Shown piece by piece: positions 2,304 to 3,354 of a stretch of 64,000 nt of DNA. The notes under the pieces were generated by a model. The model made no database searches. It saw nothing but the letters and a program-made list of their open reading frames with translations, and was not told the DNA's origin. Numbering within the stretch: the first letter of the stretch is position 1; the number at the start of each line of letters is the position of its first letter. The position numbers and the translations under genes were made by a program. The DNA comes from Alphaproteobacteria bacterium (GTDB lineage: Bacteria > Pseudomonadota > Alphaproteobacteria > Rickettsiales > UBA3002): assembly GCA_017302575.1 (NCBI GenBank), contig JAFLDD010000001.1, positions 862,629 through 926,628 on the forward strand, written 5' to 3'.

Positions 2304-3302
2304 TTAGGTTTGAGCTGTGCGGCTATGCACTTCACCAAGCTTGCCTTGGAGCTCAATACTTGGGGCATCCATCTGAATTGCCGGGAGTTGCGAAGAAGGT
2401 GTGTGCATGCGGCCCACATGCGGATATGTGTCTTTGAATTTTTCGTCTAAATGTAATTTGTTAATGCGCCACTCAATCATAGTTTCAAGAGCTTCAATAC
2501 CTTTGTCTTTGGCTATAAATCCGGTTTTGGGCAGCTCTAAGCTCAACACAATCCGCTTATTTTGCTCTTTGAAAAGCGCCAGCATTTCTTCGCTAATGGT
2601 TAGATCCGCAACACCCAACTGACCTGCTGCCCATTTTTGTATTGGGCGCTGGTGTACTTCTCGTTTGCGAACAGGGTCGGCAGCTTCTGCTTTTGGGTCT
2701 ACCACTTCAGCAAACAGGTCGATAAGGTTGAAGCGCCCTGAGTCATTATCCCAGAACAAGTTATCTTTCTTCACGTGATCGAGATGAAAGCCTCTGGATT
2801 TCACAAAAGCAATCTTGTCTGCAAGGTCGAGGAAGGCATCATCCGGTAGATTGCGCAGCCAATCAAGATAGGCGTCATAGCGCCCAGATACGCTTAACTT
2901 ACGACCTTCACAAATGGTATCGCGTATCCAGTCAGTTATGTCTTGCCCTTGTTGGCGAAGCAGAATTGCGAATGTTCCTTTATTATCTTTGAATACAGCC
3001 TGACCAAAATTACGACCGCCAAGTTCATCTGGTAATTCTATTAGTGACTCTGATTCTGACAAATTTTTAAGGAAGCTATTTGCGTCATTTGTCGGGAAAT
3101 CAGTCCATGTACGGAACCGTTTCACTAGAAACTTATCTAAAATGGGGTATTGGCGTTTGGCTTCGTCATCAAACTCATACACCACGCCTTGCAAACCCCT
3201 GCCCAAGCGCTTTGCAGCCATTGAACGCGCCACCAACTCACGGATATTGGGTATCTCTGTAAGTTGGTTTGCATCATCACTGACTAATTGATTTCCGTCC
3301 AT
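2304..3302 (-). CDS. Orphan protein with protein-kinase-like motifs
   Basis: Clean 332-aa ORF; GRGLQGVV (GxGxxGxV), FLVKRF Lys about 21 aa later, HLDHVKKDN catalytic-loop-like, LIDLF DFG-like 14 aa after the Asn; AT-richer than neighbours; no SD; -10 sits 6 nt from ATG. Confidence 0.6.
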   Translation of the reverse strand: MDGNQLVSDDANQLTEIPNIRELVARSMAAKRLGRGLQGVVYEFDDEAKRQYPILDKFLVKRFRTWTDFPTNDANSFLKNLSESESLIELPDELGGRNFGQAVFKDNKGTFAILLRQQGQDITDWIRDTICEGRKLSVSGRYDAYLDWLRNLPDDAFLDLADKIAFVKSRGFHLDHVKKDNLFWDNDSGRFNLIDLFAEVVDPKAEAADPVRKREVHQRPIQKWAAGQLGVADLTISEEMLALFKEQNKRIVLSLELPKTGFIAKDKGIEALETMIEWRINKLHLDEKFKDTYPHVGRMHTPSSQLPAIQMDAPSIELQGKLGEVHSRTAQT

Positions 3303-3308
3303 TTTTTC

Positions 3309-3354
3309 AGTCTAGCAGAGCTATATTGCGAATAATGTGAAGATTTTATGAAGC
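3309..3354 (-). promoter_or_regulatory. Direct-repeat operator plus extended -10 module (GCTTCAT-AAAA-TCTTCAC-N19-TGC-TAGACT), 6 nt from ATG 3302
   Basis: Read directly; same 46-nt architecture as 5 other sites in window. Confidence 0.45.

Follow-up and report, generated by a model that had tools for sequence, protein, structure and literature searches.

We examined a 64,000-nucleotide stretch of DNA, hereafter the window, from an alphaproteobacterium of the Rickettsiales (lineage UBA3002; assembly GCA_017302575.1, contig JAFLDD010000001.1, positions 862,629 to 926,628), and in it a gene on the minus strand that encodes a protein of 332 amino acids with the motifs of a protein kinase. A preliminary description, made from the sequence alone, had read this gene as an orphan with a minimal set of kinase-like motifs, leaderless, operator-controlled and divergent from pyrB. 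The 332-residue product and every motif were found where that description had placed them, judged by the list of open reading frames (ORFs) and the residue positions, and the gene does lie between a tetratricopeptide repeat (TPR) lipoprotein gene and pyrB, from which it diverges. Its stop-to-stop frame spans 2307–3311, and 9 nt upstream of the ATG start codon there is a TAG in frame, so that this ATG is the sole possible start; the N-terminus MD(G/E)NQ is kept across orthologs. Position 3354, where the preliminary description ended its interval, is the 5′ end of an upstream direct-repeat box outside the coding sequence. The gene and the parts of its product are located as follows.

2304–3302, minus strand: coding sequence of the 332-aa kinase-like protein (NCBI J0M34_04485, "hypothetical protein"; in the ORF list; 100% match to protein P0001; syntenic orthologs)
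2703–3227, minus strand: protein-kinase-like core, residues 26–200, from the N-lobe to the Asp equivalent to that of DFG (hhalign 97.8%, profile against PDB, Foldseek)
3180–3203, minus strand: Gly-rich loop G34-R-G36-L-Q-G39-V-V41, aligned to the NleH loop GKGGNAVVY
3120–3122, minus strand: K61 in FLVKRF (which starts at residue 58), the putative ATP-anchoring Lys of strand β3 and equivalent of VAIK, aligned to the Lys of NleH VLKMF
3000–3017, minus strand: signature G96-R-N-F-G100-Q101, counterpart of FNxYYG in NleH/OspG (opposite YYG in hhalign)
2760–2786, minus strand: predicted catalytic loop H173-L-D175-H-V-K-K-D-N181, of the form D-x5-N (conservation, a HMMER gap in NleH, weak Pkinase register in relatives)
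2712–2726, minus strand: L193-I-D195-L-F, corresponding to DFG and to the "PID" of NleH/OspG, with the putative metal-binding Asp, D195, 14 residues past N181 (aligned to NleH FNPIDI)
2313–2696, minus strand: mainly helical C-terminal region, residues 203–330 (AlphaFold2 secondary structure; in the second model the confidence score pLDDT mostly exceeds 80)

As had been noted before, no transmembrane segment or signal peptide is visible in the protein (maximum Kyte-Doolittle mean over 19 residues, 0.93); residues 1–30 carry a net charge of −3, and the first ~13 residues are polar and predicted to be disordered. The lower GC content claimed for the gene was also found: GC is 0.455 and GC at third codon positions (GC3) 0.432, against means of 0.511 ± 0.024 and 0.545 ± 0.060 for the genes of the window. 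This puts its GC about two standard deviations below the window mean, and several other window genes are as low. The low GC recurs in the orthologous locus L001 and is absent from loci L002 and L011, where the gene has the GC of its neighbours; given this and the syntenic orthologs, recent horizontal transfer was rejected as its source. No paralog of the protein was found within the window.

Homology, predicted fold and active-site residues

Searches of Pfam, NCBIfam and the PDB with the single sequence gave no match, and PHROGs and PADLOC returned noise only. With a profile of five family sequences, the top PDB match was NleH1 (4LRJ), aligned over the Gly loop as well as the catalytic/DFG region. 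With 21 sequences the best PDB matches were NleH1 (E = 1.5e-7), NleH2 (3e-6), and CK2α and SteC (both ~1e-3), followed by GSK3, YabT and PERK, and 60 of 60 among the matches listed were kinases. In hhalign, the 21-sequence family aligned with NleH/OspG, represented by a five-sequence alignment rebuilt from prophage and plasmid records, at 97.8% probability (E = 1e-12) over 130 columns covering query residues 26–200, with identity in only 22% of the columns. Because of these profile statistics, namely the NleH1 E-value and the hhalign probability, the motifs are beyond what chance would give. In relatives, Pkinase itself appears below threshold, in register from the Gly loop to DFG (best E = 0.055, 13.3 bits against a cut-off of 31.7 bits). 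NleH/OspG had not yet entered Pfam in 2022 (PMC9758233), which may explain the empty Pfam result.

The AlphaFold2 model improved from a pLDDT of 70.7 with a shallow alignment to 86.7, with a predicted TM-score (pTM) of 0.85, when the 21-sequence alignment was supplied. Foldseek against the PDB returned 62 matches at E ≤ 1e-3; those listed were all protein kinases, and OspG (TM-score 0.45 on the target) and NleH2 (0.47) were among the matches with a probability of 1.00. Against BFVD, nearly all matches were annotated as kinases, ABC1-, APH- and ChoK-like proteins included. A kinase fold is thus supported for the N-lobe and catalytic core, the model having only kinases among its listed PDB matches, and is not supported for the C-terminal helices, which could not be mapped onto a canonical C-lobe. 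That region (residues 203–330) has no sequence match in the PDB and is poorly conserved beyond the close clade.

Conservation was counted over 21 family members and, for the clade, over nine alphaproteobacterial proteins. G36, G100, Q101, G119, N181 and D195 are present in all 21, and G34, V41, G96, N98 and D175 in 20 of them; the best-conserved element of the family is GRNFGQ (residues 96–101). K61 is Lys in 14 members, Arg in six and Ile in one. Within the nine alphaproteobacterial members K61, D175, K179, N181 and D195 are all invariant. In the wider family the catalytic loop reads D-x-x-N-P-x-N, HMMER opens a one-residue gap in NleH at the D-x5-N loop, and no APE motif or canonical activation segment can be recognised in the protein. 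The preliminary description had proposed conservation of the Lys, Asp and Asn as a check; D175 (20/21), N181 (21/21) and D195 (21/21) are kept in homologs, and K61 is invariant only in the alphaproteobacterial proteins. Profile, hhalign, AlphaFold model and residue conservation all support the protein-kinase-like reading made there, and neither of the two outcomes named there as refuting it was observed.

Several features weigh against an active protein kinase. The β3 Lys is replaced by Arg in the six relatives mentioned, which is unusual among active kinases; the His of HRD is not a family trait (H173 in 2/21); the predicted catalytic loop has one residue too many between Asp and Asn; and no residue could be assigned as the αC Glu in this protein. 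TM-scores against kinases range from 0.23 to 0.47, all below 0.5, the root-mean-square deviation is high, and no equivalence could be drawn between the C-terminal helices and canonical subdomains VIII–XI. Clear likeness to a kinase is confined to the N-lobe and catalytic core. The whole case is moreover computational, built on sequence and predicted structure.

Some of these features would suit a kinase fold with another chemistry or none, such as a pseudokinase scaffold, an AMPylase or a glutamylase; SelO and SidJ are examples of kinase active sites put to other uses. The overlong catalytic loop, the missing HRD His, a β3 Lys changed to Arg or Ile in a third of relatives, and a best-conserved element, GRNFGQ, that has no known role all fit such a protein. 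Here, however, the Gly loop, K61, D175, N181 and D195 are intact, and they are invariant in the clade; NleH and OspG, moreover, have been described as active kinases (PMC8386410; PMC12756638). We regard this alternative as very unlikely.

A second alternative is a small-molecule kinase with the protein-kinase-like (PKL) fold, comparable to APH, choline/ethanolamine kinase, Kdo/WaaP or MavQ, acting on a lipid, sugar or metabolite, perhaps while the envelope is remodelled under phosphate stress. All PKL enzymes have this fold and these catalytic residues in common, which hence do not discriminate. The missing activation segment and APE motif and the ABC1-, APH- and ChoK-like BFVD matches would agree with such an enzyme, as would the adjoining envelope lipoprotein gene and the D-x-x-N-P-x-N loop of the wider family, which is like the Brenner-type motifs that are a feature of small-molecule kinases. 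Against it, protein kinases rank first and no APH, ChoK or Kdo-kinase structure occurs among the 60 PDB matches listed. Pfam APH, Choline_kinase and Kdo were likewise absent from every relative scanned (16 alignment members, three further relatives and two giant-protein slices), and the adjacency to the TPR lipoprotein gene is lost in distant homologs. We therefore hold a small-molecule substrate to be distinctly improbable.

A rare family and its relatives

By sequence and fold, the closest characterised relatives of the kinase-like protein are the effector kinases NleH1/NleH2 of EPEC/EHEC and OspG of Shigella, together with their relatives VopG and SteC. NleH/OspG are marked by a minimal fold without subdomains VIII–XI, a G-rich loop, an invariant Lys, the catalytic Asp and Asn, and a PID motif (PMC12756638; PMC8386410). 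Our protein shares with them the order of motifs, GxGxxxxV(Y/F), (V/L)xK, an aromatic-Gly element after αC, (G)hhhD...N-hL(Y/W)D and F(N/F)xID, and a small core of ~175 residues with no recognisable activation segment. It differs in having GRNFGQ for FNxYYG, D-x5-N for D-x4-N and LID for PID, all at homologous positions. After D195 it has ~130 extra structured, mostly helical residues in place of a short tail, and it lacks an N-terminal region of the NleH type. NleH/OspG-type genes are borne on prophages or plasmids, whereas the gene studied here is chromosomal and syntenic, in an alphaproteobacterium that is uncultured and looks free-living, no secretion system being seen nearby in the window. 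Since the NleH/OspG hallmarks occur only in homologous form, we place the kinase-like family as a sister family and not as a member.

As an observation on NleH itself, three records of phage 434 and of a lambda h434 imm21 hybrid (OL657226, OL657227 and OM418627) contain, near 23.5 kb, a short ORF named "T3SS effector kinase-like protein" (T3SS, type III secretion system) that matches the C-terminal half of an NleH query fragment, which indicates that NleH-type sequences are cargo of lambdoid phages.

The family is very rare. Clustered at 50% identity, it amounts to about 15 clusters in a set of 15 billion proteins, with four close homologs (47–62% and 39% identity) among 5.8 billion clustered proteins. 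An exhaustive phmmer search of 1.84 billion representatives gave 16 matches, one of which, P0011, was dropped as an artefact of a repetitive catalase-peroxidase. No true relative occurs in 185,579 GTDB species genomes, where the matches were only polyphosphate kinase genes with the 12-mer DELGGRNFGQAV in common. In the PPK1 of Granulosicoccaceae metagenome-assembled genomes (L008, 4152–6422, plus strand, and L007) this 12-mer is identical to residues 91–102 of the kinase-like protein and spans the signature motif; we rejected it as homology and judged it probably a chance match or a convergent loop. A metagenome scan found only the ortholog already known, a word-indexed protein search with profiles of the family contributed little more, and tblastn gave no match for the protein in annotated plasmids, nor for a kinase slice of a giant protein in annotated phages and plasmids. 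The word orphan is apt only in part, as orthologs at 47–62% identity exist in kept synteny along with distant relatives.

The relatives fall into three groups. The first consists of stand-alone alphaproteobacterial proteins of 330–345 aa, and the second of stand-alone proteins of 265–363 aa from AT-rich genomes, many with long low-complexity N-terminal extensions. In the third, the kinase-like region is a single domain inside giant proteins. One of these, P0016 (5054 aa), combines an SLT lytic transglycosylase at its N-terminus, the kinase-like domain at 1116–1274 and a methyltransferase dependent on S-adenosylmethionine; another, P0012, has 3013 aa. A third, a 2428-aa ORF that ends in the kinase-like domain, lies on the 73.6-kb viral contig L022 (IMG/VR UViG_3300016472_000430). 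This is the architecture of the so-called polyvalent proteins of phages and conjugative elements, whose kinase domains have been proposed to modify proteins of the invaded bacterium, like the T7 kinase (PMC5512222). By analogy, relatives in giant SLT/methyltransferase proteins, one of them viral, make a role inside bacterial cells plausible for the kinase-like domain.

Two side observations concern these loci. On L022, an AT-rich contig, positions 693–18522 of the plus strand hold three ORFs in succession, 912, 2428 and 2599 aa long, in none of which a Pfam domain was found; the last two overlap by 1 base, and they may be parts of one giant protein. Directly upstream of the distant homolog P0022, the ORF at L006 771–2333 (plus strand) has faint ART-PolyVal and weak HD matches, domains typical of polyvalent and conflict proteins.

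Kinase-PolyVal (PF18762), the Pfam family for the kinase domain of those polyvalent proteins, is a further point of comparison. Relatives of our protein sit inside giant multi-domain proteins and also occur as stand-alone versions, the window protein being stand-alone, and, as in Kinase-PolyVal, active-site residues are kept while the C-lobe is divergent or absent. A Gln on the N-lobe's final strand (Q117, 14/21) echoes a conserved Gln described for that family (PMC5512222). Neither the kinase-like protein nor the giant-protein domains matched PF18762, P0020 alone reaching 16.7 bits against a cut-off of 27 bits through its Gly loop only. The His-Asp insert of Kinase-PolyVal was not recognised in the family alignment, and no search aimed at the insert was made. 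Unlike the family described here, Kinase-PolyVal has been reported from Verrucomicrobia-Chlamydia and Bacteroidetes (PMC5512222).

The promoter, its copies and the neighbouring genes

The gene is separated from pyrB by a 105-bp spacer, which holds a 25-nt block, CACTTAGCTTCAYAAAATCTTCACA, with 24 of 25 positions invariant in diverged orthologs, followed by variable sequence. Its promoter would consist of the two elements listed first below; the next three lines give the corresponding elements of distant homologs.

3309–3314, minus strand: −10-like hexamer TAGACT, ending 6 nt before the ATG (TAGAGT or TATAAT at the same place in L001 and L002; no Shine-Dalgarno sequence)
3337–3354, minus strand: 18-bp box GCTTCAT-AAAA-TCTTCAC, a Pho-box-like 7+4+7 direct repeat 22 nt upstream of the −10, conserved in orthologs
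L010: box TTTTCAT-CAAA-CTGTCAT, −10 TAAAGT, distance 22 nt
L011: box TTGTCAC-AAAA-GCTTCAC, −10 TAAAGT, distance 22 nt
L023: box CTGTCAT-CAAA-TCTTCAC, −10 CATAAT, distance 22 nt

No −35 hexamer is present, which is why a scan for the sigma-70 consensus missed this promoter. Because the same layout stands upstream of distant homologs in other contexts, the element belongs to the kinase-like gene and not to pyrB. A palindromic operator was considered and rejected, no inverted repeat of 8 nt or more being present. The claim that the gene is operator-controlled is right in essence: a conserved 7+4+7 site (CTTCA-N6-CTTCA, 3337–3354) accompanies the gene, laid out as an activator site would be and not as a repressor operator.

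In three diverged orthologs the 6 nt between the −10 and the ATG read GAAAAA, AAAAAA or GGGAAA, with no Shine-Dalgarno sequence. A −10 that ends 6 nt before the ATG and the missing Shine-Dalgarno sequence form the geometry expected for a leaderless mRNA, and in these orthologs the sequence fits the leaderless start that had been suggested. The layout is absent from the distant homologs L010 and L011, which have leaders with a Shine-Dalgarno sequence.

The box sequence of the kinase-like gene occurs once in the window, and its pattern occurs more often. A strict search for box, 22 nt and −10 found two sites in the window against 0.00 in 100 shuffles, and a weight-matrix scan (threshold at least 12 bits, plus TAnnnT at 21–23 nt) found five against 0.1 at random. 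The further copies are these.

12298–12343, plus strand: second copy, ATGTCAT-CAAA-CCGTCAT, 22 nt, TACAAT; before a 223-aa orphan (12369–13040) between tgt and queA, no Pfam match
16848–16893, minus strand: third copy, ATTTCAT-CGAA-TTGTCAT, 22 nt, TATGTT, 6 nt to the ATG; before a low-GC orphan (16350–16841, ~163 aa) just after gyrA, no Pfam match
59052–59097, minus strand: fourth copy, ATTTCAC-GCAA-CTGTCAC, 22 nt, TAGATT; before a DUF1150 gene (58808–59017)
25896–25940, minus strand: weaker candidate copy, 13.5 bits, 21-nt spacer, TAGCCT; before a 419-aa orphan (24611–25870), no Pfam match

In L001 alone, an inserted gene for a Gly/Ala-rich protein of 145 aa (8019–8509, minus strand, no Pfam match) has the same promoter, with 7 nt from −10 to ATG. 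The leaderless layout is thus seen in two further box-driven genes, this one and 16350–16841.

The PHO box is 18 bp long and has two direct repeats of 7 nt on either side of a 4-nt spacer rich in A (PMC4415409), and the motif obtained for Caulobacter PhoB by chromatin immunoprecipitation sequencing shows two YGTCAYR repeats 4 nt apart, the spacer again being A-rich (bioRxiv 10.1101/741363). Our box has the same 7+4+7 layout, an A-rich spacer and no −35 hexamer. The layout is found in four lineages of homologs and at four other window sites; at least one canonical half-site (CTGTCAT, TTGTCAC or CCGTCAT) appears in the homolog and regulon boxes, and many of the regulon half-sites read YGTCAY. 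We therefore take PhoB as the leading candidate for the regulator, on the likeness of these sites. Three points speak less well for PhoB. Both half-sites of the kinase-like gene's own box read CTTCAY, with T for G relative to canonical GTCAY; the distance to the −10 is 22 nt here, against the ~10 nt of E. coli pho promoters; and the 64-kb window holds no pst or pho gene, so that the motif is uncalibrated for this organism. From the half-sites and the distance, the regulator may instead be another protein of the OmpR family.

Downstream of the kinase-like gene the following feature adjoins.

1308–2261, minus strand: TPR lipoprotein gene lying 42 nt downstream, perhaps in one operon with the kinase-like gene, in the close clade only (LVTAC lipobox, TPR matches in Pfam)

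No terminator-like site was seen in the 42-nt gap. Gene order in the close clade, mazG–SDR–TPR lipoprotein–kinase gene, then divergently pyrB–(small ORF)–pyrC–pyrF, is kept in L001–L004, which indicates vertical inheritance of the gene there. Distant homologs (25–33% identity) lie beside mraZ/rsmH in L010 and downstream of ftsB in L011 and L023. A functional link to the TPR lipoprotein or to pyrB was rejected, since these genes adjoin it only in the syntenic close clade and not in L010, L011 or L023.

On the other side, pyrB probably starts at the ATG at 3408 (conserved frame, RHLL motif), although gene callers start at MEGVD in orthologous loci. The pyrB leader (3355–3407, plus strand) is strongly kept between diverged orthologs, as in GCTATCAGT.GCGC just before the ATG, and no Rfam element was found in the leader or intergenic region at E ≤ 1. 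Between pyrB and pyrC lies an ORF of 70 aa (4359–4571, plus strand) with counterparts at the same place in L001 (67 aa) and L002 (63 aa) and no Pfam family.

Elsewhere in the window, four minus-strand genes have a low GC/GC3 (0.33–0.46 against a mean of 0.545), at 15728–16255, 25988–26329, 59903–60946 and 6601–7071, three of them with no Pfam match. The last encodes a HAD_SAK_2 domain protein, and 15728–16255 may share a transcript with the box-driven ORF upstream. By eye, the ORF translations also show a complete-looking Tad/Flp pilus locus at ~41.8–53.9 kb (minus strand; TadE/G-like, TadB/C, CpaF, CpaE, secretin and CpaB) and an ExbB-ExbD-TonB cluster at 38.2–40.9 kb (minus strand). In the same translations of the 64-kb window, no gene of a type III, IV or VI secretion system (T3SS, T4SS, T6SS) is visible. 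Biosynthesis genes of the pyr, arg, aromatic, met and rml sets, again recognised by eye, are typical of a free-living cell.

Proposed function and significance

Taking homology, structural model and promoter together, we consider it rather probable that the gene encodes a soluble, catalytically competent PKL kinase of a very rare sister family of NleH/OspG, placed under a regulator of the OmpR/PhoB type. In such an enzyme the loop G34-x-G36-x-x-G39-V-V and K61 would hold ATP, D175 would serve as the catalytic base, and N181 and D195 would bind Mg2+. The γ-phosphate would pass to Ser/Thr of proteins and probably also to the kinase itself. As there is no APE motif or activation segment, activity would probably be constitutive or switched by a partner, and the helical region 203–330 and the GRNFGQ loop would be likely elements of specificity. 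Expression would start from an activator-dependent promoter, with the 18-bp repeat centred near −43, no −35, and a −10 that ends 6 nt before the ATG, giving a leaderless mRNA. A response regulator of the OmpR/PhoB family, in the simplest case PhoB acting under phosphate limitation, would switch it on along with a few other lineage-specific genes.

The protein is likely to be cytoplasmic and to act on bacterial proteins, as a stress-response kinase in a two-component regulon might. We take the cytoplasm as the default because the protein has no export signal, no translocation system lies nearby in the window, the gene context looks free-living and relatives occur in giant phage-type proteins. 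SrkA/YihE (RdoA) of E. coli, a stress-response kinase that belongs to the Cpx regulon, is cytoplasmic and has the PKL fold, offers a parallel: it is soluble, of ~330 aa, has no signal peptide, and its promoter is under an OmpR-family regulator that binds direct repeats. The kinase-like gene would resemble it in the size and solubility of its PKL product and in its promoter of the OmpR-family direct-repeat type. The two differ in regulator and box, and the fold of SrkA is APH-like, its C-lobe being complete; general searches turned up no detectable sequence relationship between the two proteins, and none was aimed at SrkA.

A purely cytoplasmic role is opposed by the fact that the closest characterised relatives are secreted effectors. 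The protein could accordingly be a translocated effector kinase like NleH, OspG, SteC and VopG, carried by a secretion system that works on contact into a eukaryotic host or prey cell, where it would phosphorylate proteins of the host, with the box marking an effector regulon, as PmrA controls Dot/Icm effectors in Legionella and Coxiella. Besides the kinship in sequence and fold with T3SS effectors, the polar, predicted disordered first ~13 residues, the AT-richer gene and the long low-complexity N-terminal extensions of distant homologs from AT-rich genomes would agree with export. So would a promoter layout common to Pfam-less, low-GC, lineage-specific genes scattered among housekeeping genes. 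Yet the window shows no T3SS, T4SS or T6SS gene but only the Tad pilus and ExbBD/TonB, it has broad biosynthesis genes of the free-living type, and the kinase-like gene is vertically inherited in kept synteny. The candidate regulon also includes the DUF1150 gene, which has a Pfam match; DUF1150 is a widely conserved small cytoplasmic protein of Alphaproteobacteria. The relatives in giant SLT/methyltransferase proteins, one viral, likewise point to bacterial targets. On this evidence we think translocation into another cell unlikely.

Fold and chemistry of the kinase-like protein are of a known kind, while the family, its signature, the longer loop, the C-terminal region, the distribution and the promoter-defined regulon are undescribed in the libraries and literature searched. 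The protein defines a new family of the PKL superfamily that has no Pfam, NCBIfam, PHROGs or PADLOC model. The promoter layout groups the kinase-like gene with a handful of uncharacterised genes, and it predicts induction by phosphate limitation or by some other two-component signal; a set of candidate leaderless genes from an uncultured lineage is a further yield. The family links the enteric NleH/OspG effector kinases to environmental Alphaproteobacteria and to giant phage proteins, and so bears on the origins of effector kinases. As a speculation that we consider unlikely, NleH/OspG might be one tip of a wider kinase family at home in bacterial cells. One branch would travel in giant phage polyvalent proteins that are injected into bacteria; the other, domesticated in Alphaproteobacteria, would be the enzyme of a response-regulator regulon (probably that of PhoB, for phosphate starvation) of partly leaderless, lineage-specific orphans, and by phosphorylating bacterial proteins it would reprogram stress physiology.

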